Assembly: GCA_031388915.1 (NCBI GenBank)
Contig: JANMSB010000213.1
Coordinates: 1 to 33,609 of the forward strand
Direction of reading: 5' to 3'
Source: Pseudomonadota bacterium
Lineage (GTDB): Bacteria; Pseudomonadota; Gammaproteobacteria; Steroidobacterales; Steroidobacteraceae
DNA: 33,609 bases
The notes under the pieces are model-generated. The model did not search any database, was not told where the DNA came from, and was given only the letters and a program-made list of their open reading frames with translations. The stretch's first letter is position 1, and every line of letters starts with the position of its first letter. The position numbers and the translations under genes are program-made. Shown piece by piece: positions 3,066 to 17,002 of the stretch.

Positions 3066-5954
3066 ATGTCGAATTCCAAGCCCGCTACTGAGCGCTCCGA
3101 ACCCATTCTGCTGACCTTTCTAAAGCGCCGTTGGCGCCTATTGAACGTACTGGGTGTGCTGCTATTGACCTATACCCTCTTGGGCACGTTGCTGGCGCCG
3201 CACCTGATCAACCAATACGCCACCGAATACGTGCACAACGAAATGCACCGCCAACTACACCTTGGCAAGGTGCAATTCAATCCATTCACGCTGTCCTTAC
3301 GAATCGGCCAAACAAACTTCTCCGAACAAAATGGCGCGCCCATCGTTCGATTCGATCACCTACTGGTGAATGCCGAACTCAGCTCGTTGTTCACCGGCAG
3401 CTACAACTTCAAACAGATTCAACTAAACGCGCCCAACTTGAACGTGGTGGTTGATACGCAGGGCAACCTCAACCTGGATTTCAGCGCCCCGAATATGCCA
3501 GAACCCGCACCCAGTGATGCGCCTCTGCCGGCCATACGCATTGGCGAATTGCAACTAAGCAATGGCCTGGTTCGTCTTGAGGATCACTCACGACCCCAGC
3601 CCTTCATCACTGAACTCAAGCCCATCGAGTTCATGGTGAAGGACTTTCGCACTGAACCTAACCACGGCAATGCGTTTCATTTCACGGGCGCCTCCAAAGC
3701 GGAAGAAACTTTCGATTGGCAAGGCGATTTCACGGTGCAGCCGCTGGGTTCGACAGGCAAGCTGCAGATTGCTGGCTTGAAGGCCAGCACCTTGCAAAGC
3801 TATTTGCAGGAGTCGTTGCCGATGCGTCTGTTGGCCGGCGAGGTGTCGATACAGGGCGACTATCAGCTAGCAGTGAATGAGCGTCTGGAGCTGAAACTCA
3901 ACCTGCCCAGCATTGATGTCAACGCGGTACAAGTTGCGCCCAAGCACGGCGATGACACGCCGTGGGTGTCGCTGTCCACCATGCAACTAATCGGCACGCA
4001 GGTATCGCTGCAACAGCGCAATGTCGCTATTCAAAAAGTTCGTATCGATGGATTGCAACTCAACGCCTGGCTCGACCAGGACTACAAGCTGAATCTATTG
4101 GAACTACTGGGACCGGATGAACCCAGCGAGAAACCTTGGAACAGTGCCGTGAAGGACATCGAGCTGGTGAATGCGCGCATGCAGATTGAAGACCGCAGCA
4201 TCGCGCCAACCGCGCAGTTCACCTTGTTTCCGGTGCTGTTACAGGTGCAGAACTTTAGCAGCGCACCGCACACCACCATCAACATAAACACCAAAATCCA
4301 TATCAACGAACGCGCCGATTTCGATGCCGCCGGCACGATTGATCTCGACACCTTGAGTTCACAACTGAAGCTCCGGCTAAGCAATTTCGCACTCAAGGAT
4401 GTGCAGAACTACGTCGCCACCAGCACCGATATGCTGGTTAGCGACGGCCGACTGACTACCGAAGGTGATCTTTATTACCAGGGCGATGCCGCCAACAAGC
4501 ATCCGCAACTCAAGTTCACCGGTAACGTTGAAGTCACCGACTTAAGCACGCAAGACACGCTGGAAAACAAAGACTTCATCAAGTGGCAATCGCTGCAACT
4601 CAAAAATCTGAGTTACAGCATGGCGCCCGATACATTGACGATAGAACAAATGATTGCGCGCCAACCCTATGGCCGCGTGATTATCGACAGCGACGGCAGC
4701 ACCAACATTCAGCACGTGCTGCGCATACAGCCCGAGCCTGCGACGAACGACAAGGCGAAACCAACCGCCAAAGTCCGCACAGCCGCGCCGACCATGCGCA
4801 CCCGCATCACCAAGGTGATCATTGCCGACGGCTCGGCCAACTTCACCGACAACAGCGTACAACCGACCTTTTCCACCGGCATGCAACGGTTGAACGGCGC
4901 CATCACCGGCCTGTCATCGGCCAATGATTCGCGCGCCAAGATCACACTGGACGGCAGTGTCGACAACCATGCGCCCGTGACGATCACCGGTGAGGCCAAC
5001 TTCCTGGCGGCGGACACCTACAGCGATGTCGCCATGAACTTCCGCAATATGGAGTTGACCACCTTCAACCCCTACTCCGGCAAGTTCGCCGGCTACAGCA
5101 TCGCCAAGGGCAAGCTCAGCACCGAACTGCGCTATCGAATTCAAGACCGCAAACTGGATGCGCAGCATCACATCGTGGTCGATCAACTGGAGTTCGGCGC
5201 TGCTACCGACAGCAAGGATGCCGTGCCCTTGCCGATCAAACTGGCGGTGTCATTGTTGAAAGATCGCAATGGCGTGATCGACCTAAACCTGCCGGTGAGC
5301 GGCAGTCTCGACGATCCGCAGTTCAAAGTTGGACCGGTAGTCTGGAAAGCCTTCCTCGGTCTACTCACCAAGATAGCCACAGCGCCGTTCTCGGCACTGG
5401 GCTCGTTGTTTGGTGGCGGACCCGAATTGGCCTATGTAGATTTTGTACCTGGCTCTACCAACTTGAGCGCGATAGAAGCCGACAAATTGAGCAAGCTCGC
5501 CAAAGCCATGGCGGAACGGCCACAGCTGAAGTTGAACATACCGCTGACCGTAGTCACCGATGCCGATGCTGCCGCTTTGAATGAAACGGCATTCAAACAA
5601 GCATTGAATGGCGTGCTGGCTAATGCCGCAACCGCAAATAACACTCAGCGTCTCACTGCGCTCACCACTTTGTACAAAGCTCGCGTCGGCAGTACGCCCA
5701 CCTTTCCGGCATCGAACGAGCCCGCAACTGAGGTCACCACAAGCCACATTGCTTACCTTGAAGCACAACTCAAGCCGCTATATGCGATTGGCGCCGCCGA
5801 TCGTGACGCACTCACTCGTGCGCGTGCCGATACCGTGCAAGCCGCGTTGCTTGTCAACAGCGAGTTAGCCGCCGAACGCATCTACCTTACTGCGCGCAGC
5901 AATGAAGTTGAATCACCCAATGGGGTAGTGCGCATGGAATTGAAGTTGGAGTAA
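3066..5954 (+). CDS. DUF748 domain-containing large envelope protein (AsmA-like clan)
   Basis: 962-aa ORF with one N-terminal TM helix (LNVLGVLLLTYTLLGTLLAPHLI) and a long beta-rich repetitive body. The C-proximal segment DLNLPVSGSLDDPQFKVGPVVWKAFLGLLTKIATAPFSALGSLFGG matches my memory of DUF748 proteins. Confidence 0.6.
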   Translation: MSNSKPATERSEPILLTFLKRRWRLLNVLGVLLLTYTLLGTLLAPHLINQYATEYVHNEMHRQLHLGKVQFNPFTLSLRIGQTNFSEQNGAPIVRFDHLLVNAELSSLFTGSYNFKQIQLNAPNLNVVVDTQGNLNLDFSAPNMPEPAPSDAPLPAIRIGELQLSNGLVRLEDHSRPQPFITELKPIEFMVKDFRTEPNHGNAFHFTGASKAEETFDWQGDFTVQPLGSTGKLQIAGLKASTLQSYLQESLPMRLLAGEVSIQGDYQLAVNERLELKLNLPSIDVNAVQVAPKHGDDTPWVSLSTMQLIGTQVSLQQRNVAIQKVRIDGLQLNAWLDQDYKLNLLELLGPDEPSEKPWNSAVKDIELVNARMQIEDRSIAPTAQFTLFPVLLQVQNFSSAPHTTININTKIHINERADFDAAGTIDLDTLSSQLKLRLSNFALKDVQNYVATSTDMLVSDGRLTTEGDLYYQGDAANKHPQLKFTGNVEVTDLSTQDTLENKDFIKWQSLQLKNLSYSMAPDTLTIEQMIARQPYGRVIIDSDGSTNIQHVLRIQPEPATNDKAKPTAKVRTAAPTMRTRITKVIIADGSANFTDNSVQPTFSTGMQRLNGAITGLSSANDSRAKITLDGSVDNHAPVTITGEANFLAADTYSDVAMNFRNMELTTFNPYSGKFAGYSIAKGKLSTELRYRIQDRKLDAQHHIVVDQLEFGAATDSKDAVPLPIKLAVSLLKDRNGVIDLNLPVSGSLDDPQFKVGPVVWKAFLGLLTKIATAPFSALGSLFGGGPELAYVDFVPGSTNLSAIEADKLSKLAKAMAERPQLKLNIPLTVVTDADAAALNETAFKQALNGVLANAATANNTQRLTALTTLYKARVGSTPTFPASNEPATEVTTSHIAYLEAQLKPLYAIGAADRDALTRARADTVQAALLVNSELAAERIYLTARSNEVESPNGVVRMELKLE

Positions 5955-5975
5955 CGCGATTAGGTAGGCTGTATA

Positions 5976-6025
5976 GGGGATTTCAATCCCCGCATCCGAA
6001 ACATAGGAGCTGGATTGAAATCCCC
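5976..6025. repeat. inverted repeat pair (REP-like), probable bidirectional terminator between convergent genes
   Basis: GGGGATTTCAATCC (5976-5989) is the perfect reverse complement of GGATTGAAATCCCC (6012-6025). Each arm is also internally palindromic (GGGGATT/AATCCCC). The pair sits in the 75-bp gap between the stops of the 3066..5954(+) and 6030..7052(-) genes. Confidence 0.6.
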
Positions 6026-7302: not shown

Positions 7303-8151
7303 ATGTCGACTGCCGTGAAAACCCTTACCACCCGCCTTGCCCACGAACCATCCAAGCCGAGGATCGGCAGTCGCGTGCTGAATAGCAAGCAAGAGCTGTT
7401 GAGCGGCGAGCTTAGCAGCGAGATTCGTGAGCTGCTGGAACAGCGCGGCGTGCTGGTTTTTCCGGAAATCAATTTCACCAATGAAGAGCAGATCGCGTTC
7501 ACCAAGACGCTCGGCAAGTTCGCTCCCGAACGCAATAATATGGACGAGAGCGTCACCAAGATTTCGCTCGATCCCAAGGAAGCTGCCAGCGCCGAATACC
7601 TCAAGGGCTCGCTCTACTGGCATATCGACGGCACTATGAACCAAGTGCCGATCCTCGCCTCGCTGCTCACGAGCAAGAAGCTCCCCAGTTGGGGCGGCAA
7701 CACGGGTTTCTGTAACACCTATGCCGCTTGGGACGACCTGCCCGAGGAAAAGAAGGCGGAGCTTGAAGGGCTGCGCGTCATGCATTCGGTGTGGGCCTCG
7801 GTGTTTTACTACGAGCCCGAGCCGAGTTTGGCCAAGCTACAGGCCATGCAGTCGGTCGGCGAGCAGGAACTGCCGCTGGTATGGAAACACCGCTCGGGTC
7901 GCAAATCGCTGATCCTGGGCTGCACTGCGCATCACGTACTGGGCGTCAGCGCAGCGAAGAGCGCCGAGATTCTGATCGGTCTGCGCGAATGGGCGACCAG
8001 CGAGCAGTTCTCCTACAGTCACGAATGGAAAGTCGGCGACATGGTGATGTGGGACAACACCGGCACCATGCACCGCGCCGAGGCGTATGACCTTACCAGC
8101 GGTCGCATGCTCCATCGCACCAAGCTGGAAGGCGAAGAATCCTTCGTCTGA
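7303..8151 (+). CDS. TauD/TfdA-family Fe(II)/2-oxoglutarate-dependent dioxygenase
   Basis: HxD iron ligands are present in LYWHIDGT, and the distal His lies in WDNTGTMHRA. Size is about 282 aa. The start is placed at the ATG at 7303, preceded by GGAG, rather than at 7285. Confidence 0.7.
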   Translation: MSTAVKTLTTRLAHEPSKPRIGSRVLNSKQELLSGELSSEIRELLEQRGVLVFPEINFTNEEQIAFTKTLGKFAPERNNMDESVTKISLDPKEAASAEYLKGSLYWHIDGTMNQVPILASLLTSKKLPSWGGNTGFCNTYAAWDDLPEEKKAELEGLRVMHSVWASVFYYEPEPSLAKLQAMQSVGEQELPLVWKHRSGRKSLILGCTAHHVLGVSAAKSAEILIGLREWATSEQFSYSHEWKVGDMVMWDNTGTMHRAEAYDLTSGRMLHRTKLEGEESFV

Positions 8152-8177
8152 CAACACGCTGAAGCTAATGACTCAAG

Positions 8178-8214
8178 TGGCCTGGCCCTGTAACAGGGCC
8201 AGGCCATTTTTTTT
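8178..8214 (+). terminator. rho-independent terminator of the TauD-family gene
   Basis: Perfect 13-bp stem TGGCCTGGCCCTG / CAGGGCCAGGCCA with a 3-nt loop, followed by T8 (8207-8214). Confidence 0.85.
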
Positions 8215-8274
8215 GACAACTCGCCCATACGGCAATCGGCCACCACTTTGCAGCTCAAGGCCACATCGCGTTTG

Positions 8275-8305
8275 GAACGAGAAAGGCGGACCATATGGTC
8301 CGCCT
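8275..8305 (-). terminator. hairpin terminator downstream of the 8336..9211 gene
   Basis: Perfect palindrome AGGCGGACCATATGGTCCGCCT (8284-8305). On the minus strand it is followed by TTTCTCGTTCC. Confidence 0.5.
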
Positions 8306-8335
8306 TGAGTGCTAGTGCCCGAAAGGTGAAGAACG

Positions 8336-9211
8336 TTAACGCTTGGCTGAGGCGCCGGCCTCGACCGAGCTGGAGCCACTGGCTTTCACCTTGCCGTTCG
8401 ACTTCTTCACGTTGGCGCTGTTGTTGGTTGACGCATCAGACTCCATATCGAACGCGCCGGCTTCCTGCATCTTGGAGTTGGTCGCTGTACCTTGCTGTGC
8501 GCTGGCGCCGGAGCGGTTGGCGCTGACCGAACCTACCTGATTGGTTGTCTGCTGCATTGAAGCCGTCGGCGTGGCTACTGCACTGCTTGCAGCAGTCTCG
8601 CTGGCACCAGCAACCGATGCACGATTGTTGGCAGCCGCATTGGTCGCGGCAGAACTCGTGCCCGATGCGGTGTCCGTTGCACGAGCTTGAGCAGATTGCG
8701 CGGCGCCCTTTGCACTGGAGGTGACGTTGTGCGCAGCATCGACTGACGTCGCAGCGGCCACATCGGCAGTCGCCTTGGCTTGGGCAGTCGTGTCGAGGGC
8801 CTTGTCCTTGGCAACTACGGCGGTCGCTTCACCGGTGCTCTTTGCTTGCAGCGAAGTTGCTACCGCGGCGTTCTTCGCCGTCGCTGCGGCGGACTCAGTC
8901 GTGCTCTTGGTTGCATCCACTTTGGACTTGGCCGCATCAGCCGTGTGATCAACACGCGACTTGGTACGCGAACCTGCGCCATTCACGGTATCCATCGCGC
9001 CACGACCATCAACGCCGAGGTTGCCACCCACGCTGCCGCCCAGACTGCCGTTACCTGCGCCGCCAATCATGCCGCGGCTGCCGGAAAGACCGCCGCCGGC
9101 TGCGCCATTCAGCGCGCCATTGGCACCACCCACCAACTGTGCGTTAGCAATCGAGGTCAGGCTCATGGCCGCCACCAGAATCGAACCGGCAAATAAATGT
9201 TGAGTCTTCAT
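8336..9211 (-). CDS. secreted Gly- then Ala/Ser/Thr/Lys-rich low-complexity protein (hypothetical)
   Basis: 291-aa ORF with AGGAG 7 nt before the ATG and a signal peptide MKTQHLFAGSILVAAMSLTSIANA/QL. The mature part has no Trp, Tyr or Cys and a single Phe. A Gly-rich head (GGANGALNGAAGGGLSGSRGMIGGAGNGSLGG) is followed by AK/AT-rich segments such as AKSKVDATKSTTESAAATAKNAAVATSLQAKSTGEATAVVAKDKALDTTAQAKATADVAAA. Confidence 0.6.
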   Translation of the reverse strand: MKTQHLFAGSILVAAMSLTSIANAQLVGGANGALNGAAGGGLSGSRGMIGGAGNGSLGGSVGGNLGVDGRGAMDTVNGAGSRTKSRVDHTADAAKSKVDATKSTTESAAATAKNAAVATSLQAKSTGEATAVVAKDKALDTTAQAKATADVAAATSVDAAHNVTSSAKGAAQSAQARATDTASGTSSAATNAAANNRASVAGASETAASSAVATPTASMQQTTNQVGSVSANRSGASAQQGTATNSKMQEAGAFDMESDASTNNSANVKKSNGKVKASGSSSVEAGASAKR

Positions 9212-9260
9212 GTTGGTACTCCTGCAATTGGCTGCAGCCTTTCCGCAACCTTTGTAAGTA

Positions 9261-9287
9261 ATACGAACCGACTTGAAGATTTCTTCC
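9261..9287 (-). promoter_or_regulatory. ECF-type promoter-like motif upstream of the low-complexity protein gene
   Basis: The minus strand reads GGAAG-N17-CGTATTACTT. The -10-like 10-mer CGTATTACTT is identical to the one upstream of the S8 peptidase gene. It lies about 50 nt upstream of the ATG at 9211. Confidence 0.45.
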
Positions 9288-9353
9288 CTGCCGCCGAAAT
9301 TCTTTTTAGTAATTATGTCAACGGCCCGGCTGCCGGCTTACAGCCGCCATTTT

Positions 9354-10790
9354 TCAACGATGTGTGTTCGAACCTGTCTTATTGTCGGACACGACTGACA
9401 GCGATATGCGCAACGTTTCACCCACTACGCCATAGCCATACTGCTTATCAGGTCCTTTGGAACCGAGATCGCGAGCGCTATTGATCACCTCGACCCGCGC
9501 GGCAGTGGCGGCATCCGGTTGTGGCTGATTGATATGCATAGCCAACAAGCCTGCAACCAACGGCGCGGCGAATGAAGTACCGCGCACGTTAACGAATTCG
9601 CCCTGCAAGGTTGCCGCAGCCATATCAGCGCCGGGTGCGGCGAGCGTCACTTGCTTACCGCGCCCTGCTTCCACCAATACTCGATCACGCGCATCCACGG
9701 CGGTGACGCCAATCACGCGCGGATAGGACGCGGGATATAACGGCGGCGCAGCAGGACCATCATTACCCACGGCGGCAACGATCAAGTGACCGCGTGCAAT
9801 CAGGCTAGCCACCAGTTGTTTGAGCAAGGCATTGTCCGGCCCCACCAAGCTCACATTAATAACTGGCACCCGCTGCTGCGCCAGCCACGCCATGGCGCTG
9901 GCGATGCGTGTCGTCGCGCCGCCGACCGGCTGCCCGCAGTAGACATCGGCCGCATACAACTGCGCGCCCGGCGCTGCGCCGCTGAAGCGCTCGCTCTGAC
10001 CGACCAGCAACGATGCGACGGCCGTGCCATGCGCACTGGGAATGGTTTGTCTATCGCAGCCCCAACCAAGAATGCGGCTATTGCGAAACACCGGATGCGA
10101 TATATCGACGCCACCGTCGATTAACCCCACACGAGTTTTGGGATACCTTGCTGTGGTTGTGGCATTAACAGCCGCCGATGGCAGCGGCACAACATTGCTC
10201 GCAGCGCTTTGCGTATACACATGGTTGTAGTCATAGTCGCCGTTGCGATCCAGCGTGCGCAGACGCTGTAGTGCTCGGCGTGCAGTCATGCCTTGCGGCG
10301 CCAGCAAGGTCACCATACGAATGCCCAACTCCTCCATCGATTGGTCTTGTACAACGGTAAAGCCTATAGCGATGGCGGCCTGCAAACTCTGCGGCGTAGG
10401 CGACAACGACACCACCTGACTGCGCAGTACCGGCGCGCCATTGGCATCAGTTTCTAACGTATCGGGATTGGCGCGCAGTAAGGCGCGTATGCGCGCTGCC
10501 CGCAGCAGACGCTCGGACTGCGAATCCAGCTCGCTGGCGGCATCCACTACGATGGCGTCGAGTTGCCGCGTGATGGCGTTGGCGCCGGTATTGGTGGCGG
10601 TATTAGTGGCGGTATTAGTGGGCACTTGCGGCAACTGCACGTTGGGGGTGGTAGGCGCCGGCAAAGTGGGCAGCGCCAACTGCGCCTGCGCCCCCGGTGC
10701 CGACAGCAACGTCGCCAACCAACCGACACAGGCCCAGGACATCCGCCATGGGACACGTCTTTGCCGGTGAATGTCGGGTTGGTTGCTCAT
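9354..10790 (-). CDS. S8-family (subtilisin-like) serine peptidase, secreted
   Basis: 478-aa ORF with the catalytic triad in D-H-S order: GLIDGGVD, HGTAVASLLVG, GTSFAAPLVAG. The N-terminal signal has a basic n-region (HRQRRVPWR) and an AQA cleavage-like site. Confidence 0.85.
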   Translation of the reverse strand: MSNQPDIHRQRRVPWRMSWACVGWLATLLSAPGAQAQLALPTLPAPTTPNVQLPQVPTNTATNTATNTGANAITRQLDAIVVDAASELDSQSERLLRAARIRALLRANPDTLETDANGAPVLRSQVVSLSPTPQSLQAAIAIGFTVVQDQSMEELGIRMVTLLAPQGMTARRALQRLRTLDRNGDYDYNHVYTQSAASNVVPLPSAAVNATTTARYPKTRVGLIDGGVDISHPVFRNSRILGWGCDRQTIPSAHGTAVASLLVGQSERFSGAAPGAQLYAADVYCGQPVGGATTRIASAMAWLAQQRVPVINVSLVGPDNALLKQLVASLIARGHLIVAAVGNDGPAAPPLYPASYPRVIGVTAVDARDRVLVEAGRGKQVTLAAPGADMAAATLQGEFVNVRGTSFAAPLVAGLLAMHINQPQPDAATAARVEVINSARDLGSKGPDKQYGYGVVGETLRISLSVVSDNKTGSNTHR

Positions 10791-10797
10791 AAAAGTA

Positions 10798-10824
10798 ATA
10801 CGTTGCGCATGGCGGTTTTAATCC
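10798..10824 (-). promoter_or_regulatory. ECF-type promoter-like motif upstream of the S8 peptidase gene
   Basis: The minus strand reads CCAGGATTAAAACCGCCATGCGCAACGTATTACTT, that is GGATT-N17-CGTAT. The -10-like element ends 7 nt before the ATG at 10790. Confidence 0.45.
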
Positions 10825-10914
10825 TGGCTCAAATGCTAGCATTCGGACTCGTGGTGTCGGCACCGAAACACAATACGCTGCCGCCAACAAACAATAATTT
10901 ATTTGAAGCGGCCT

Positions 10915-10941
10915 GGAATAAACCGACCTGGCCCGTCGTAT
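10915..10941 (+). promoter_or_regulatory. ECF-type promoter-like motif upstream of the sigma factor gene (putative autoregulation)
   Basis: The plus strand reads CCTGGAATAAACCGACCTGGCCCGTCGTATAC, that is GGAAT-N17-CGTAT. It matches 20 of 32 positions in an ungapped alignment with the divergent S8 motif, with matches concentrated in the -35-like and -10-like blocks. Confidence 0.45.
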
Positions 10942-10955
10942 ACAGTTTAAGAGCC

Positions 10956-11453
10956 ATGAGCGAAGCATTCGAAAGCATTCGAGTTCAACTCATTGAGTTG
11001 CTGCCCCGGCTGCGGCGTTTTGCCCGCAATTTGGCTCGACAGCCTGATGACGCCGACGACATCGTGCAAATTGCATTGGAGCGCGCCCTGTCGCGCTGCG
11101 AACAATGGGATGCCAGCTCGCGTCTGGATAGCTGGATGTTCGGCATCATCCGCAATGCGTGGATCGATGAAGTGCGCAGCCGGCAGCGACGCGGCCCGCA
11201 TCTGGACGTGAACGAGATGAGTGAAACGATCGCCGATAGTCACGCTGCGATGGAGATTGAAATGATGTCCGTGCAAGCCGCCATGGCCCAGTTGCCCGAA
11301 GAACAGCGCACCGCTGTCAGCTTGGTGCTGGTGGAAGGGCTGTCTTACAAAGAAGCCGCGCAGGTGATGGAGATTCCCATCGGCACATTGACCAGTCGCT
11401 TGGCGCGCGGCCGAGAGGCGTTGCAGGCGTTGCTCGGAGGTAAGTCGTCATGA
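10956..11453 (+). CDS. ECF-family RNA polymerase sigma-70 factor
   Basis: The ORF track starts at 10563, but that extension is antisense to the S8 gene. The ATG at 10956 gives a 165-aa protein. It has region 2 (DDADDIVQIALERAL, WMFGIIRNAWIDEVR) and a region 4 HTH (EQRTAVSLVLVEGLSYKEAAQVMEIPIGTLTSRLARGREAL). Confidence 0.85.
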   Translation: MSEAFESIRVQLIELLPRLRRFARNLARQPDDADDIVQIALERALSRCEQWDASSRLDSWMFGIIRNAWIDEVRSRQRRGPHLDVNEMSETIADSHAAMEIEMMSVQAAMAQLPEEQRTAVSLVLVEGLSYKEAAQVMEIPIGTLTSRLARGREALQALLGGKSS

Positions 11454-12208
11454 GTACCGACATCAACATCACCGATGAAGTGCTGATGGCCTATGCAGAT
11501 GGCGAACTGGATGTCGCACAAGCAGCGCGTGTAGAACAAGCGATGCAGCAGGATGCCAGCGTTGCCGCGCGGGTTGCCCAGCACCGAGCCTTACGCGCGC
11601 AATTGCAAAACGGTTTATCCGGCTTGCTATCCGAGCCTGTCCCGACACGCTTGCTGAGCATGCTGCAAGCGCGCCCCGCTACAAACAGCGCCGCCGATAA
11701 AGTGGTGGATCTCGCTCAAGCGCGTCAGCAGAAGGCGGCGCCTGCGCGTCACTGGCATAGCCGCGAGTGGTTCGCGCTGGCGGCATCGTTAATCGCGGGC
11801 GTCGTGATCGGTATGTATGCGCTAAGTTTCAATTCAAGCGGATTGATCGCGACGCGCGATGGTTCGCTGCTGGCGCAGGGAGAGCTTGCCAATGCACTGA
11901 CCACACAATTAGCCAGCTCCACGGCGGCAGATTCGTCGGTACATATCGGCATCAGCTTTCGTGATCGCGAGGGTAACTATTGCCGCAGCTTTGCCATCCA
12001 AGGCAGCTCGCTAGCCGGCCTGGCCTGTCACGAGCACAACAACTGGCGCGTGCAGATGCTGACCGAGGCGAAAACTCAAGCGGGTGAATTCCGGCAAGCC
12101 GGCTCGGCGACGCCGCCTGCAGTACTGGCTCTCATCGAGCAACAGATTGACGGAGAACCGCTCGATACCGATATGGAAACGGCGGCATTACGCGAGGGAT
12201 GGCAGTAG
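11450..12208 (+). CDS. membrane-spanning anti-sigma factor
   Basis: The ATGA start/stop overlap with the sigma gene implies translational coupling. The N-terminus is anti-sigma-domain-like (ITDEVLMAYADGELD...), but I see no H-x3-C-x2-C zinc ligands. One TM helix (WFALAASLIAGVVIGMYAL) precedes a ~125-aa periplasmic domain with two Cys (NYCRSF, LACHEH). Confidence 0.75.
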   Translation: MSTDINITDEVLMAYADGELDVAQAARVEQAMQQDASVAARVAQHRALRAQLQNGLSGLLSEPVPTRLLSMLQARPATNSAADKVVDLAQARQQKAAPARHWHSREWFALAASLIAGVVIGMYALSFNSSGLIATRDGSLLAQGELANALTTQLASSTAADSSVHIGISFRDREGNYCRSFAIQGSSLAGLACHEHNNWRVQMLTEAKTQAGEFRQAGSATPPAVLALIEQQIDGEPLDTDMETAALREGWQ

Positions 12209-12226
12209 AGATAGCCACATACTTGG

Positions 12227-13591
12227 CTACTCAACCCGCAACTCCAACTGCGCACCTTTGTCGTCAATGGTGTGCATGATCACTGGCCGGCGCCAGACAC
12301 GATGGATGTATTGCAACACTTTCTTGCCGCGCTCGACATCCAAGCCACGACCATCGGTTTGATGGTCGTGCTTCAACTCCAACGTGCCGTCGACGCGAAT
12401 ATGCGAGGCCGCAATGGAGGGCGCGCCGAAGTTGTACTTGGGTGCGAGCAGCGCCTCGTGCAAGTCGCTTAACTTGGCGTCTTTGACCACCACGCGGCCA
12501 TTGGACTCGGCATTGAATTTGAATAAATTGAGTTCATCCGCCAGGTTTTCATCCAGATAGTTGCGCACAAAGCTGAAATCATCGTCTTGCTGCATGATGT
12601 TGCGCGCCGCTTCGATGCCGTCTTGCTCGATGATTTTTTCCCACATGGTAAATCCCAGGTGGTAGGGATTGATGGACAACGCAATGTGCTCATCGGATGC
12701 ATACGGGCGTACCACATCGGAATGGCACTTAATGGCATCCAAGTAAGCGGCTTGCGGCATGAAGTCCGCCTCACGTAACAAGCGGGCGTGCCAGTACGAC
12801 GCCCAGCCTTCATTCATGATTTGCGTAGCAAACACCGGATAGAAGTAGAACGACTCCTCGCGCACTGCCAGGAAAATATCTCGCTCCCAGCCTTCCAGCT
12901 CCGGTGCGTACTGCGCGATGAACCACAGCAAGTCTTTTTCCAGATGCGGTGGAATCGGCGCGCGCTGGCGCGGCACTGCCGCCGTTTGCGCTGCCAGTTC
13001 TGGGTCCAGTGCAGCGAAACGTTTGGCAAACTCACCATCGCGGTGCAGGGGCTTGGCGGACAGGTATTCCGGATATTTCTCGCGCCGCAGCCGATGATTG
13101 GTGTCGATGTGCTGCTCCAATGCCAGTGCGGCATCTAGCACGACTTCGACGCGCGCGGCGCCGTATTCTTCGATAGCGCGACCAATTTGCCGGGCATGGT
13201 TGGCAGCGTGTTCGACAATGTGTTCGCTGATCTGCGACTGGGCGCGATTGAACAACAAGTTATTGCGCGAGAAGTCGGCGTGACCCAACACATGGGCGGT
13301 CACCAACACGTTCTCGGCCAGACTATTGTTTTGCGCCAGGTAGGCGTGGCCGGGATTACCCGGGAACACCACCTCGAACAAACGCGAGTTGCCCATCTGG
13401 TGTTGGATCAGTTGATAAATATAACGCACGCCGAACGACCAATGCGGCATACGCACCGGCAAGCCATACACCGAAATCTCCATCATGAAGCTTTGCGGCA
13501 CGGCCTCGAAGTCGACTGGATTGAAACTCAGCCCCAGCGAGGTGGCCAGCTTTTCGACCTTCGGCAGATAATCACGCCATTCGCTACTCAT
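12227..13591 (-). CDS. ycgB: SpoVR/YcgB-family protein
   Basis: 454 aa. The N-terminus (LPKVEKLATSLGLSFNPVDFEAVPQSFMMEISVYGLPVRMPHWSFG) and the body (GNPGHAYLAQNN, HVLGHADF) are typical SpoVR. It is the third gene of the prkA-yeaH-spoVR triad. Confidence 0.85.
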   Translation of the reverse strand: MSSEWRDYLPKVEKLATSLGLSFNPVDFEAVPQSFMMEISVYGLPVRMPHWSFGVRYIYQLIQHQMGNSRLFEVVFPGNPGHAYLAQNNSLAENVLVTAHVLGHADFSRNNLLFNRAQSQISEHIVEHAANHARQIGRAIEEYGAARVEVVLDAALALEQHIDTNHRLRREKYPEYLSAKPLHRDGEFAKRFAALDPELAAQTAAVPRQRAPIPPHLEKDLLWFIAQYAPELEGWERDIFLAVREESFYFYPVFATQIMNEGWASYWHARLLREADFMPQAAYLDAIKCHSDVVRPYASDEHIALSINPYHLGFTMWEKIIEQDGIEAARNIMQQDDDFSFVRNYLDENLADELNLFKFNAESNGRVVVKDAKLSDLHEALLAPKYNFGAPSIAASHIRVDGTLELKHDHQTDGRGLDVERGKKVLQYIHRVWRRPVIMHTIDDKGAQLELRVE

Positions 13592-13615
13592 AGATCACTC
13601 GTATGTTGCAATCTC

Positions 13616-13683
13616 GTAGGGGCGGGTTTCAAACCCGCCTGCTTCGCCGCAAGACATAGGGTGGGTTTGAAGCCCACCCCTAC
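13616..13683. repeat. REP/BIME-like element: two inverted copies of a ~25-bp palindromic unit
   Basis: The left unit is GTAGGGGCGGGTTTCAAACCCGCC. The right unit, reverse-complemented, is GTAGGGGTGGGCTTCAAACCCACC. Differences between the copies fall in the stems (GCGGGTTT/AAACCCGC versus GTGGGCTT/AAACCCAC) and largely keep each hairpin intact. The element overlaps the yeaH stop codon. Confidence 0.7.
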
Positions 13684-14840
13684 GCCGCCTCCTGATGCTT
13701 GAAGAAATGCCGCACGGCATCCCAGATATTTTCCAACTGGGTGATGGCGAAGCTGCCCACTGCCTTGCCGCGCTCGGCATATTCGCGGAACAACAGACCC
13801 ACTTCGGTTTGCAGATTCTGCTGCGCATTCGAAGTGACTTCGAGATAGCCGCTGTAGTTGCATATCTCCGTCAACTCCTGCATGGCCACTTCGGCCGGCG
13901 CGCGATCCTCCGAGTAGTTGTCGCCGTCGGAGGCGTAAAACAAATAGATGTTGTAACGCGCGGGGCTGTAGCGTTCGGCAATAATCTCGCGCACCTTGTT
14001 GAGGCCGGTTGAAGTGACCGTGCCGCCGCTGCCGCTGACTTGGAAAAACTCTTCTTCGTTGAATTCCCAGGCTTCCGTGGTGTGCGCTACAAACACCGTA
14101 TCCAGGTGTCGGTACTGACGCTTCAAACCTTGCGTTGCCCAGAAGAAAAAGGTTTTTGCGAGCTTGCGATCGGCATCGCTCATGCTGCCCGACACATCCA
14201 TCAGGAAGAACACCACGGCCTGTATGGATGGTTGTTCGCGTTGATTCAATTGCCGGAAGCGCAGGTCATCGTCGGTAAAGTTTGGCCCATTGGTCTGAAT
14301 AGCGCGCCGCTTCACCGACTCGCGCAACGAACGCCGTCGATCCAGACGTGAGCGTGCGCCCTTACGATCCCAACCTTCCCGCTGCCAGTCGGTGGATTCG
14401 GACTTGCCGACACGCGCCTTGAGATTCGGCAATTCCATTTCATCCCACAGCCAGTCGACGATGTCATCGATCTTGAATTCCAGCGTGAATTCGATGCCGC
14501 CGCCATCATTGCCGCCCTGCCCCTTACCGGGTTGACCACCGCCCTGCGGCTGGCCTTGCGCCAACACATCACCCGGCTTGGCTTGTCCCTGGCCCACACC
14601 ATCACGTTGCTGTTGCTGATTCAACCGGAAGTGATAGTGCTCCAGCATCTTCACCGGCACTTTGACAGTGCGTGAACCACTGCCCATGACATCGGCGCCG
14701 GCAACTATCTCCGGCAGATGCTGACGCACCGCGTCGCGGACTTTTTCATTGTGTCGTAACCAATCCCTGGCGCCGCGCGAGAACAACTCGTACCAACCAT
14801 TAACATTGGATTTCGGAAGCAGGGAATCGTATTCGCTCAC
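13680..14840 (-). CDS. yeaH: YeaH/YhbH-family (DUF444) protein with vWA-like domain
   Basis: 386 aa. Contains WYELFSRGARDWLRHNEKVRDAVRQHLPEI, a Gly/Gln-rich linker, and a MIDAS-like FFLMDVSGSMS. It lies between prkA and spoVR. Confidence 0.85.
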   Translation of the reverse strand: MSEYDSLLPKSNVNGWYELFSRGARDWLRHNEKVRDAVRQHLPEIVAGADVMGSGSRTVKVPVKMLEHYHFRLNQQQQRDGVGQGQAKPGDVLAQGQPQGGGQPGKGQGGNDGGGIEFTLEFKIDDIVDWLWDEMELPNLKARVGKSESTDWQREGWDRKGARSRLDRRRSLRESVKRRAIQTNGPNFTDDDLRFRQLNQREQPSIQAVVFFLMDVSGSMSDADRKLAKTFFFWATQGLKRQYRHLDTVFVAHTTEAWEFNEEEFFQVSGSGGTVTSTGLNKVREIIAERYSPARYNIYLFYASDGDNYSEDRAPAEVAMQELTEICNYSGYLEVTSNAQQNLQTEVGLLFREYAERGKAVGSFAITQLENIWDAVRHFFKHQEAA

Positions 14841-14878
14841 CTCAACCTCCTGGCGCAGGACACCTTCGTCCTTAGGGT

Positions 14879-16834
14879 CTACTCCTGCGCCAACAACGTG
14901 GTTACATAGTTCAGCGCTTCCTTGGCGCTGTGCTCGTCATAGCCATACTCGTTCACCAAGCGCTGCTGCACGGCTGATACTTTCTTGCGCGCTTCGTCAT
15001 CGGGACGCGAGCTGGATGTCACCAGTCTCAATACATCGCGACGCTCTTCGAACAAATACTGCTCAATGGCTTCGTGCATGCGTGCATGACTGTTGAGCGT
15101 AAATTTATCGCCGGCCTTGAACGCCATCATGGCCTTGCGCACCACTTCCTGACGGAAGGAATGCTTGCCGGAATCGGATACTTTGATCTTTTCTTCCACT
15201 TGACGCAGGAAACGCTCGTCTGCCGGACGTGTTTCGTTGGTGATGGGATCAGTGACTTCGCGGTGATCCAACGAGGCCTCCACTTCGTCGAGATATTTCT
15301 CGAGCAGTTGCTGCGCCTCCTCTTCAAATGAGGCGAACAGCGCGCGATGAACATCCTCCTTGACCCAGCGGTTGTAGAAATCTTTACGCGCCAGCACCAA
15401 AAAATCAATCCATTGTTTTTTCTGCTTGGCGTCCATACGCGCATCGCTTTCCACCGAATCCTTCAGCGCCAGTAGCAATTCCATGCTGGTCAAGCTGGCG
15501 GCATCGGTGCGCGTGATAGCGTTCGATATAGCGTTGACGATGAAGCGTGGACTAACCCCACCCAAACCTTCATCGGGGGCCTCGGCACGCAGGCGCTGCG
15601 CTTCGTTCTCGCCAAAGCCTTCAACACTTTCGCCGGCGTAGATGCGCAGCTTCTTGGCTATATCCAATCCTTCCTTCTCTGGCTTTTGCAATCGAGTCAG
15701 GATGGAAAACACCGCTGCCAGCTTGAGCACATGCGGATCAAGATGCACATCGCGGAACGCCGGCGCACCCGATACCAGCTTCTGATAAATGCGCGCCTCG
15801 TCTTTATAGGAGAGCGCATACGGCACCTTGATGATGACCATGCGGTCGAGCAGCGCTTCGTTTTCCTTTTCCTGCAGAAACTTATGGAACTCCGCGAGAT
15901 TGGTATGCGCAACAATGGTTTCGTCGAGATAGATGAGCGGGAAGCGCGATACCTTGACGTTCTTTTCTTGCGTCAAGGTCAGCAGCAAGTACAGAAACTC
16001 GCGCTTCACCTTAAGTATCTCAATCATTTCCAGCATGCCGCGACTGGCGGCATACACCGCGCCCGACCAGGACCAGGCACGTGGATCGCCTTCGTCGCCG
16101 ACTTCGGCTACCTTCGATAGATCCACCGAACCCACCAAGTCGGCAATGTCTGCGGTGGTGGGATCGTGCGGCGCATACGTGCCCACGCCCATGCGCATGG
16201 CTTCCGACAGGAACACGCGCTCGACCGGTACGCGCAGATAATCGCCTTCGTACTCGCGTACTAACTTGTCGCGTGCCCAGGGACTCAACTCGCCAGTCAA
16301 TTCAACGCCGTAAGATTCGCGGAACTCGGCGCGCAAGCTGGTTGGAATCAAGTTCAGTGGCGACTCGTGCATCGGTGAACCCTTGATGGCATACACCGCG
16401 CCGTCGTCGGTACGACTGTATTCTTCCAGCCCGCGCTTGAGCAGGATGGCCATGGTGGATTTGCCGCCAGAGGGCGGCCCGAGCAACAACAGCAAGCGCC
16501 GACCGACATCCGAGCCCGCGGCTGCTGCTTTGAAATAGTCGATAACACGCGCCAGCGGCTCGTCGATGCCGTACAACTCGCGTTGAAAGAGTTCGCGGGA
16601 CTTTACGGTTTCATCCGTGCTGGCGGCAGATTTTCCGTACCAGCGCAACATGTCCCAGATGTATTGATGGCTGGTGCGCGCCAGCGCGCGCGATGCGTGC
16701 GGTAGCACGTCGTTGAGAAAGTCACCGAAGGTGCCTTCCCAGTGCTTGGCCTTGTGCTGTTTGCCAAAGGCACTCAAAGATTCAACAAACTTCGACTGAC
16801 GACCCGTCGAACCGTTGCCGATGTCGGACTGCAT
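14879..16834 (-). CDS. yeaG: PrkA/YeaG-family AAA+ serine protein kinase-like protein
   Basis: The ORF track starts at 16909. I prefer the ATG at 16834, which follows GGAGGAG. Walker A is LLLLGPPSGGKST. The ~651-aa length and the conserved triad context support the call. Confidence 0.85.
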   Translation of the reverse strand: MQSDIGNGSTGRQSKFVESLSAFGKQHKAKHWEGTFGDFLNDVLPHASRALARTSHQYIWDMLRWYGKSAASTDETVKSRELFQRELYGIDEPLARVIDYFKAAAAGSDVGRRLLLLLGPPSGGKSTMAILLKRGLEEYSRTDDGAVYAIKGSPMHESPLNLIPTSLRAEFRESYGVELTGELSPWARDKLVREYEGDYLRVPVERVFLSEAMRMGVGTYAPHDPTTADIADLVGSVDLSKVAEVGDEGDPRAWSWSGAVYAASRGMLEMIEILKVKREFLYLLLTLTQEKNVKVSRFPLIYLDETIVAHTNLAEFHKFLQEKENEALLDRMVIIKVPYALSYKDEARIYQKLVSGAPAFRDVHLDPHVLKLAAVFSILTRLQKPEKEGLDIAKKLRIYAGESVEGFGENEAQRLRAEAPDEGLGGVSPRFIVNAISNAITRTDAASLTSMELLLALKDSVESDARMDAKQKKQWIDFLVLARKDFYNRWVKEDVHRALFASFEEEAQQLLEKYLDEVEASLDHREVTDPITNETRPADERFLRQVEEKIKVSDSGKHSFRQEVVRKAMMAFKAGDKFTLNSHARMHEAIEQYLFEERRDVLRLVTSSSRPDDEARKKVSAVQQRLVNEYGYDEHSAKEALNYVTTLLAQE

Positions 16835-17002
16835 GGTCACTCCTCCGTTACAACGAAGCCGCACCCACCAAAACCGCCATCTTATTGCTTCGCCCTTCCT
16901 TGGAATCAAATCAACCTGCGTTCACCATCTTTATCGCGAGGTTATTAGTTAACTTAAGAATGAGACTACTCTTATTCAATTCCAGTTCCGTGAATCAGTA
17001 CA

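Follow-up and report, generated by a model that had tools for sequence, protein, structure and literature searches.

Predicted ECF26-type promoters in an RpoE6-like sigma factor/protease locus of a Steroidobacteraceae genome

The RpoE6 Module and Group ECF26

The closest described system is the RpoE6/EcfR6/SMa0142 module of Sinorhizobium meliloti, in which an ECF sigma factor of group ECF26 and its anti-sigma factor are encoded divergently from an S8 peptidase, an arrangement of sigma and serine protease genes that is said to be "widely conserved among group ECF26" (Lang et al. 2018, PMC6180224). Overexpression of RpoE6 induces SMa0142, ecfR6 and neighbouring genes, with start sites mapped, and the main targets are the protease gene and neighbouring genes of unknown function; the consensus for the group has GGAATA at -35 and GT at -10 (PMC6180224). 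The rpoE6 gene itself is preceded by a promoter of the sigma-70/RpoH type, not of the ECF type, and thus autoregulation is not universal in the RpoE6-like subgroup (PMC6180224). RpoE6 targets overlap by 67% with the regulon of the ECF15 sigma factor RpoE2, and no role has so far been assigned to RpoE6-type systems (PMC6180224). A heterologous ECF26 promoter is activated by each of three paralogues of the group, RpoE1, RpoE4 and RpoE6 (PMC10880074).

More generally, ECF26 systems pair an ECF sigma factor with a membrane anti-sigma factor of the class-I type encoded downstream, and the cross-species promoter consensus is GGAATA(AA) at -35 and (C)GT(C) at -10. Other members of the group occur in other contexts (lipoprotein, catalase/cytochrome b561, sulfite oxidase), with other inducing signals, and RpoE1 and RpoE4, which serve the sulfite response in S. 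meliloti, autoregulate. A literature search combining ECF sigma factors with subtilisin-like proteases returned nothing relevant, and the main text of Casas-Pastor et al. 2021 does not mention peptidases.

A Module of This Kind in Steroidobacteraceae

The locus described here lies in a 33.6-kb stretch of DNA from a Steroidobacteraceae genome, referred to below, at its full length, as the window. Its features, in order along the sequence, are the following.

8336..9211, minus strand: gene for a secreted low-complexity protein of 291 aa (from its translation)
9230..9250, minus strand: conserved stem-loop in the leader of the low-complexity gene, 2-3 nt past the predicted mRNA 5' end
9261..9287, minus strand: predicted ECF26-type promoter of the low-complexity gene, -35 GGAAGAAA at 9287-9280, -10 TTCGTAT at 9267-9261
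9354..10790, minus strand: gene for a secreted S8 (subtilase) peptidase of 478 aa (Pfam Peptidase_S8, 1.1e-32; NCBIfam matches)
10798..10824, minus strand: weaker candidate ECF-type promoter of the S8 gene, -35 GGATTAAAA at 10824-10816, -10 CGTAT at 10802-10798
10832..10843, no strand assigned: palindrome AATGCTAGCATT, lying between the divergent sigma and S8 promoter sites
10915..10941, plus strand: predicted ECF26-type promoter of the sigma/anti-sigma operon, -35 GGAATAAA at 10915-10922, -10 TCGTAT at 10936-10941
10956..11453, plus strand: ECF sigma gene, 165 aa, a putative RpoE6-like member of ECF26 (Pfam, NCBIfam, identity to RpoE6)
11450..12208, plus strand: anti-sigma factor gene, 252 aa, a membrane protein, its first 4 nt overlapping the end of the sigma gene, stop codon included

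The identities that the first-pass annotation had supposed for these four genes (ECF sigma, anti-sigma, divergent S8 peptidase, secreted low-complexity protein) hold up in the translations and in Pfam and NCBIfam searches. The sigma factor consists of sigma2 and sigma4 domains only (Pfam Sigma70_r2 at residues 15-79, Sigma70_r4_2 at 104-156), has neither region 1 nor region 3 and is of the size usual in the ECF family (about 160-200 aa); it scores 87.2 bits against TIGR02937 sigma70-ECF (cut-off 42.9), and its sigma2 domain is also matched by Pfam PhyR_sigma2. The anti-sigma protein, whose gene adjoins the sigma gene in loci L001-L014, shows one hydrophobic segment in translation, a weak zf-HC2 match and matches to NCBIfam PRK13920 and NF052375 that are far below the curated cut-offs. 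The peptidase, encoded 165 bp from the sigma start in a divergent arrangement kept in 12 loci, carries a mycosin/QhpE-like catalytic domain behind a signal peptide that ends AQA|QL. The low-complexity protein begins with a signal peptide, continues with a GGxxGG-rich stretch and ends in an Ala/Ser/Thr-rich tail. Pfam and NCBIfam searches gave no match for it, and a database search, its candidate list swamped by low-complexity words, returned a single homologue; in L001-L010 the gene downstream of S8 encodes a protein built in the same way.

Judged by sequence comparison, the module matches that of RpoE6. The sigma factor is 46-47% identical to RpoE6 over residues 1-161 (134 bits), the peptidase 36% identical to SMa0142 and the anti-sigma factor 30% identical to EcfR6; the gene order is the same, the best NCBIfam models are common to the two modules (for both sigma factors PRK12511, below its cut-off in each case), and the anti-sigma factor fits the description of its ECF26 counterparts (PMC6180224). 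The divergent sigma/protease arrangement is also annotated on an S. meliloti plasmid, and the published S. meliloti promoter sequences were located on pSymA beside the homologue of the window sigma. As in protease-linked, RpoE6-like ECF26 modules, we find an anti-sigma gene, here encoding a membrane protein downstream of the sigma gene, a divergent serine protease gene and the promoter motif of the group; by sequence the sigma factor is a putative member of ECF26, the comparison covering RpoE6 and the best PDB ECF sigma. Among solved structures the top match, modest at 80.7 bits, is to an ECF sigma of Bartonella (5uxx), to which the window sigma is thus less close than to RpoE6; we take 5uxx to be EcfG-type. 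EcfG (ECF15) promoters, GGAAC-N16/17-CGTT, share the two-block motif and spacing of the window sites. The window differs from EcfG systems, however, in that its anti-sigma factor is a membrane protein, no NepR/PhyR partner-switch genes are nearby, and an A-tract lengthens the -35 block (GGAAGAAA), in which position 5 is G or T in place of C.

The two RpoE6-like modules are not identical. The promoters of the S. meliloti module combine a GGAATA -35 with a CGT -10 at a distance of 16-17 nt, and the window sites are alike, but the -10 reads CGTT in the former and CGTA in the latter. In S. meliloti an internal RpoE6-dependent promoter drives ecfR6, whereas in the window a strong ECF-type site stands before the sigma gene, so that a model with autoregulation, as in RpoE1 and RpoE4, is suggested. 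SMa0142 has a long leader, while the ATG of the window S8 gene is at the predicted start site. The remaining targets also differ, being VOC/glyoxalase, DUF6065 and a small hypothetical protein in S. meliloti, and in the window, by prediction, the secreted Gly/Ala/Ser/Thr-rich protein, whose mRNA leader is structured.

Three Sites, Two Strong and One Weak

The first-pass annotation had named three copies of one motif, before the sigma, S8 and low-complexity genes, and all three are present, on the strands and at the coordinates given there, each consisting of GGA(A/T)(T/G), exactly 17 nt and CGTAT, with CGTATTACTT common to the two minus-strand copies, as had been noted. Written out, the sites are GGAATAAA-N14-TCGTAT (sigma), GGAAGAAA-N14-TCGTAT (low-complexity gene) and GGATTAAA-N14-ACGTAT (S8), every one of them oriented towards its adjacent gene. 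Exact matches to GGAWK-N17-CGTAT number 4 in the window against 0.14 expected, a statistic that is circular because the pattern was written after the sites had been seen. The fourth match (15435-15461, minus strand) is a chance occurrence, within the prkA coding sequence, scoring -16.8 in the matrix described next and having no counterpart in the homologous stretch of L002.

An independent weight matrix was built from 16 sites in orthologous loci of other genomes, with no window site included, and was run over both strands of the window (33.6 kb of genome, about 67,000 positions). The three sites rank 1-3, at 28.5 (sigma), 26.9-27.3 (low-complexity gene) and 16.9-17.1 (S8), the next best score being 8.7, and the maxima over 20 shuffles are 6.4-15.8; no further gene of the window is preceded by a copy, as the first-pass annotation had said. 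With the conserved columns only, the low-complexity site still scores 26.7, while the S8 site, at 10.3, falls to rank 4, inside the shuffle range (7.5-14.8). The window therefore holds two strong copies and a weak one. A scan of positions 8100-12400 for the sigma-70 consensus found no promoter, against 1.9 expected.

Conservation at orthologous loci, which the first-pass annotation had named as a check on its own claim, bears the motif out. The gene order is retained in twelve loci, from Steroidobacteraceae and their relatives and from sphingomonads. GGAA(G/T)AAA-N13/14-TCGT recurs in them, and in 9 of the 12 (L001-L006, L008-L010) it stands before the sigma gene at the same place and with the same spacing. 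Before the low-complexity gene it is found in all ten Steroidobacteraceae-type loci (L001-L010), including L007-L009, which were outside the training set of the matrix. The 16 orthologous sites have the consensus GGAAGAAA-N13-nTCGTA; their spacing is exactly equal and their GGAAGAAA and TCGTA blocks are conserved, while the spacers vary. The same pattern is seen at close range, in the alignment of the window with L001 and L002, where GGAATAAA and TCGTATA before the sigma gene are invariant and the spacer between them is not, and footprints in the three closest loci are limited to the -35/-10 blocks, the palindrome and the start regions.

On this evidence the three sites are probably promoters at which RNA polymerase initiates with the local sigma factor, the putative RpoE6-like member of ECF26. 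The sigma ATG lies 19 nt past the C of CGT (C = 10937), for a predicted leader of just 6-7 nt or so, and for the low-complexity gene (C = 9265) we infer a start near 9253-9252. That the repeats might be operator sites for a DNA-binding regulator, or similar by chance, is very improbable, for although the original pattern statistic was post hoc, the two blocks with a non-conserved spacer of fixed length, the strand-specific orientation to each gene, distances to the start codons that fit mapped ECF26 start sites and the independent ranking all argue for promoters.

The S8 Site

A more serious alternative, unlikely but deserving weight, is that only the sigma and low-complexity sites are sigma-dependent, the S8 copy being degenerate or fortuitous and the S8 gene being transcribed from another promoter, for example one formed by the TGnTAGCAT palindrome. 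Against the family consensus, the S8 site has GGATT, and A in place of T before CGT, and its core-only score lies within the shuffle maxima, as noted above, its counterpart in L001 reaching 8.2 by the same measure. A copy at the same spot is common to the two closest loci only, L001 and L002, a motif before S8 is missing from seven orthologous loci (L003-L006, L008-L010), and a strictly conserved palindrome is just upstream. Yet the site is intergenic, correctly oriented and exactly spaced; its -35 block (plus strand GGTTTT[A/T]ATCC) is aligned and conserved in the window, L001 and L002 while the spacer drifts, and by eye the same is true of the -10 ATACG, displaced by one base in that alignment. 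The L002 version scores 21.1, other S8-facing motifs are seen in L007 and in two sphingomonad loci (L011 and L013), and SMa0142 has been shown by experiment to be an RpoE6 target (PMC6180224). We retain the S8 site as a candidate promoter of the local sigma factor, though a weaker one.

The A of the S8 ATG (10790) is the 13th base counting from the C of CGT (C = 10802), that is, the ATG sits at the predicted start site, and the mRNA is probably leaderless. A sigma-70 -10 element considered for the S8 genes of distant loci (CTAnnGT-N6-ATG) was set aside, having been picked by eye only and having no supporting -35 or TG extension.

The Palindrome and the Leader Hairpin

Two further elements were detected by alignment and folding; an inverted-repeat finder applied to the two intergenic regions reported nothing at its thresholds. 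The 12-bp palindrome AATGCTAGCATT is invariant in the window, L001 and L002, and ATGCTAGCAT occurs once each in these three and in L007, always in the sigma-S8 intergenic region and nowhere else in the 433 kb of loci searched. It could act as an extended -10 (TGnTAGCAT) in either direction, or be bound by a regulator.

The other element is the stem-loop in the leader of the low-complexity gene, which is followed by a GGAG Shine-Dalgarno and then the ATG at 9211. Its 8 pairs are those of the minimum free energy structure, the whole 49-nt leader folding at -12.8 kcal/mol. The pairing covaries across 11 loci, with 92% of cells paired against 31-49% with slid partners, and compensatory changes are found in 5 of the 8 pairs. 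Nothing significant was returned by Rfam for positions 8000-12500, where the two best matches had E-values of 0.35 and 0.68 and fell far short of the gathering scores, so the hairpin is not a described RNA family. Between the S8 and low-complexity genes we find no convincing minus-strand terminator, and transcription may read through from the one into the other.

Which Sigma Factor Reads the Sites

The first-pass annotation had drawn from the three sites a small local regulon of the sigma factor. The conservation of the motif and the RpoE6 precedent uphold this, with two qualifications: the S8 copy is weak, and, as ECF26 paralogues cross-activate promoters, the regulon may not belong to this sigma exclusively, since a different sigma factor of the same genome could read the sites. 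In its strongest form, in which genuine sites are read mainly by another ECF sigma factor (a paralogous ECF26 member or one of the general stress type) and the local sigma is a target and not the master, we consider the idea improbable. It would fit the cross-activation by RpoE1, RpoE4 and RpoE6 (PMC10880074), the overlap of RpoE6 targets with the RpoE2 regulon (PMC6180224), the resemblance of the motif to EcfG-type promoters, and the best, though modest, PDB match, to the Bartonella sigma taken to be EcfG-type. On the other hand, the motif travels with the sigma/anti-sigma/S8 locus across Steroidobacteraceae and sphingomonads and stands before no other gene in the window. Gammaproteobacteria, moreover, are not known to have the PhyR/NepR/EcfG system.

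If the local sigma factor does read its own sites, the module would work as follows. At rest, the membrane anti-sigma factor, co-translated with the sigma factor, would keep it inactive, and an envelope or periplasmic signal would set it free. The freed sigma would then transcribe its own operon from GGAATAAA-N14-TCGTAT, in positive autoregulation, and, from an equally strong site, the gene for the secreted Gly/Ala/Ser/Thr-rich disordered protein, whose mRNA would carry the conserved 5' stem-loop, probably stabilising. The divergent gene for the secreted S8 peptidase would be transcribed more weakly, probably as a leaderless mRNA. As a doubtful extension of this model, the protease-linked ECF26 module might be an envelope circuit in which the S8 peptidase cleaves either the co-induced disordered protein or, as feedback, the periplasmic domain of the anti-sigma factor, tuned by the leaderless protease mRNA and the stabilising 5' hairpin.

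Implications

The sites are real and conserved, yet they are an ordinary example of the known ECF26 architecture, and the understanding of ECF signalling is unchanged by them. What they provide is a well-supported promoter model, GGAA(G/T)AAA-N13/14-TCGT(A/C/T) at constant spacing, for the subgroup of protease-linked ECF26 systems in Steroidobacteraceae; they also single out, as its most conserved predicted target, a family of disordered secreted proteins without annotation. The model enables prediction of the regulon in the genomes of soil and sediment Steroidobacteraceae, which are mostly metagenome-derived, and the locus offers a second system, beside S. meliloti RpoE6, in which the conserved pairing of sigma factor and protease can be studied.

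Three promoter-like sites and the genes behind them

The first-pass annotation proposed that three copies of GGAWK-N17-CGTAT are ECF-type promoters and that they define a small local regulon of a sigma/anti-sigma pair, a protease and a low-complexity protein. On direct reading of the region, the three quoted strings and their coordinates are correct, as is the 10-mer CGTATTACTT common to both minus-strand copies.

Promoter-like sites, read from the sequence
10915-10919 (GGAAT), 17 nt, 10937-10941 (CGTAT), plus strand: sigma-gene site, ATG at 10956
10824-10820 (GGATT), 17 nt, 10802-10798 (CGTAT), minus strand: S8-gene site, ATG at 10790
9287-9283 (GGAAG), 17 nt, 9265-9261 (CGTAT), minus strand: low-complexity-gene site, ATG at 9211

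Genes of the module
10956-11453, plus strand: ECF sigma factor, 165 aa; Sigma70_r2 and Sigma70_r4_2, TIGR02937 above cut-off
11450-12208, plus strand: anti-sigma factor, 252 aa; weak zf-HC2 match, NCBIfam anti-sigma matches far below cut-off, one hydrophobic segment
9354-10790, minus strand: S8 subtilase with signal peptide, 478 aa; Pfam 1.1e-32
8336-9211, minus strand: secreted low-complexity protein, 291 aa; Gly-rich stretch, then Ala/Ser/Thr-rich tail, no Pfam or NCBIfam family match

The start of the anti-sigma gene overlaps the sigma gene by 4 nt. Beyond it, and convergent to it, lies a trio of spoVR, a DUF444 (yeaH-like) gene and prkA (12227-16909, minus strand), and the ECF motif is absent before each of these three genes in the window.

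Conservation of the motif

The exact pattern GGAWK-N17-CGTAT matches four times in the window (0.14 expected), a statistic that we treat as circular, since the sites were already known when the pattern was drawn up; with one mismatch allowed, 10 matches stand against 5.2 expected, which is no longer unusual. An independent test was therefore sought in related genomes. The sigma protein was scanned against one genome per species, yielding 37 loci, of which the closest belong to Steroidobacteraceae and unclassified gammaproteobacterial metagenome-assembled genomes (59-78% identity); sphingomonads come next (53-55%). In tblastn, orthologous loci L001-L011 and L013 show an S8 gene divergent from the sigma and anti-sigma genes, L001 and L002 being the closest to the window. 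The motif is kept at these orthologous loci, in agreement with the first reading: GGAA(G/T)AAA, 13-14 unconserved bases and TCGT(A/C/T) precede the sigma gene in 9 loci, and the same motif precedes the gene after S8 in 7. Its spacing is fixed, since all 16 sites align without gaps.

A weight matrix was built from these 16 sites, with no window sequence included, and run over the window in both orientations. Ranks 1, 2 and 3 are the three reported sites (scores 28.5, 26.9 and 16.9); the next-best score is 8.7, and 20 shuffles reach maxima of 6.4-15.8. The fourth exact match, inside prkA (15435-15461, minus strand), scores -16.8, is not conserved and is due to chance. With the matrix, the motif is also detected upstream of the low-complexity gene in L007, L008 and L009, none of which gave such training sites, and so is an S8-facing motif in L002, L007 and L013. 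When the three closest loci are aligned, the conserved intergenic bases fall only in the -35 and -10 blocks, in the start regions and in a 12-bp palindrome, the pattern that promoters would be expected to leave. A consensus scan of 8100-12400 found no sigma-70 promoter.

Some variation among the loci was also recorded. L005 has one further copy of the motif, GGAAGAAA-N14-ACGTA, immediately behind its anti-sigma gene (4006-4035, plus strand; score 16.2), suggesting a possible extra downstream target in that genome. In L007 (about 5960-5995, plus strand) the sigma gene is preceded by an EcfG-like GGAAC-N17-CGTT, not by GGAAGAAA...TCGTA, and a GGAAGAAAA...CGTT copy on the opposite strand faces S8.

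Relation to the RpoE6 module of S. meliloti

In S. meliloti, RpoE1, E3, E4 and E6 have been assigned to group ECF26, with a consensus of GGAATA at -35 and GT at -10, and overexpression of RpoE6 induces SMa0142, ecfR6, SMa0139, SMa0146 and SMa0148, whose start sites have been mapped (Lang et al., 2018, PMC6180224). A later study, using the 2021 classification, came to the same ECF26 assignment and showed cross-activation of an ECF26 promoter by paralogues of the group (PMC10880074). In a tblastn search of a plasmid collection, replicons of the pSymA type match the window sigma factor at residues 1-161 (46-47% identity). This match, on an annotated S. meliloti plasmid, is flanked by a divergent "S8 family serine peptidase," an "anti-sigma factor," a hypothetical protein, a DUF6065 protein and a VOC protein, which is the SMa0139-SMa0148 neighbourhood, and the published promoter strings of SMa0142, ecfR6, SMa0148, SMa0139 and rpoE6 are located around the sigma match on pSymA of strain 1021. 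The window S8 peptidase is 36% identical to the serine protease SMa0142 and the anti-sigma factor 30% to EcfR6; the same NCBIfam model is best for the window sigma factor and for RpoE6, and the two S8 peptidases likewise have one best model in common. We file the locus as a putative RpoE6-like member of ECF26 by homology, synteny, anti-sigma type and promoter motif. The interpretation of the three sites as ECF promoters is thus supported by the conserved motif, the independent matrix and the homology to the RpoE6 module.

Unequal strength of the three sites

The sites before the sigma and low-complexity genes are strong, and we hold them very probably to be real sigma-dependent promoters. The S8 site, whose presence is confirmed, is the weak copy: when only conserved columns are counted it scores 10.3, rank 4 in the window and within the shuffle range (7.5-14.8), its counterparts scoring 8.2 in L001 and 14.5 in L002. 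This low core score, together with the absence of a detected motif before S8 in L003-L006 and L008-L010, indicates that the S8 copy is weaker, and either younger in evolution or more labile; that it is a real sigma-dependent promoter still seems fairly likely.

In six of the loci with no ECF motif before S8 (L004, L005, L006, L008, L009 and L010), CTAnnGT and 6 nt precede the S8 ATG, as in CTAATGTGACCGCATG. By eye, this element resembles a -10 whose position would suit a leaderless transcript; neither a -35 nor a TG extension was noticed beside it in these loci.

The region between the S8 and sigma genes also holds the palindrome AATGCTAGCATT (ATGCTAGCAT in L007), once per locus (window 10832-10843, L001 2098-2109, L002 5869-5880, L007 5903-5912), always between these genes; the rest of the 433 kb of retrieved locus DNA lacks it. 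As it reads TGnTAGCAT on either strand, resembling an extended -10, it may act as a housekeeping promoter in both directions, giving basal expression, or else as a binding site for a regulator. The sphingomonad loci L011 (5936-5971) and L013 (5900-5934) possess an S8-sigma intergenic inverted repeat, GGAT(G/T)AAACG...CGTTT(C/A)ATCC. In L011 it is GGGGATGAAACGT-N10-ACGTTTCATCCCC, giving GGATGAAA-N-CGTTT on both strands, and because the same -35/-10 arrangement occurs on both strands, one palindrome appears to serve two divergent ECF-type promoters, of S8 and of sigma.

Predicted transcripts and proposed mechanism

Most mapped 5' ends in S. meliloti fall on the 13th or 14th base from the C of CGT, that of SMa0148 on about the 16th (PMC6180224), and from these distances we estimated the start sites in the window. 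The predicted leader of the sigma gene is only about 6-7 nt (AAGAGCC); in orthologues the distance from CGT to ATG is similarly short (17-24 nt). The A of the S8 ATG (10790) is the 13th base from the C of CGT (window 10788-10802, minus strand), as in L002 (5799), and the 14th in L001 (about 2056). Since the S8 ATG thus lies at the S. meliloti start-site distance, and no plausible alternative start codon was found for S8 in L002, an S8 mRNA made by this sigma would have no leader. A transcription start 1-3 nt farther downstream would force translation to initiate at the ATG at 10742 instead.

The low-complexity mRNA carries a stem-loop (9230-9250, minus strand) 2-3 nt past its predicted 5' end, with GAAGG before it and a GGAG Shine-Dalgarno sequence after it, and equivalent leaders occur in L001-L010. 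Covariation in 11 loci supports this hairpin, with 92% paired cells (31-49% in slid controls) and compensatory changes in 5 of 8 pairs; no Rfam match was found. Stem-loops so near the 5' end classically protect mRNA from 5'-end-dependent decay. The proteins encoded downstream of S8 in the window and in L001-L010 form an unannotated family (134-291 aa) of common architecture, with a signal peptide, an (L)GGxxGG-rich stretch and an Ala/Ser/Thr-rich tail that is probably disordered. The L004 gene appears frameshifted in its assembly, and a search of 5.8 billion proteins with the window protein returned one homologue only.

Given the observed parts of the module, its distinct and conserved motif and its homology to an experimentally characterised module, we propose that the anti-sigma factor would sequester sigma until a periplasmic or envelope signal frees it, and that the freed sigma would transcribe the sigma/anti-sigma operon and the low-complexity gene and, to a lesser degree, the S8 gene. 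The module is probably of the protease-linked, RpoE6-like ECF26 type that has already been described, and as such it is unsurprising to a specialist; its modest value is that it provides a clean promoter model for the Steroidobacteraceae and a conserved, probably disordered protein as a predicted target.
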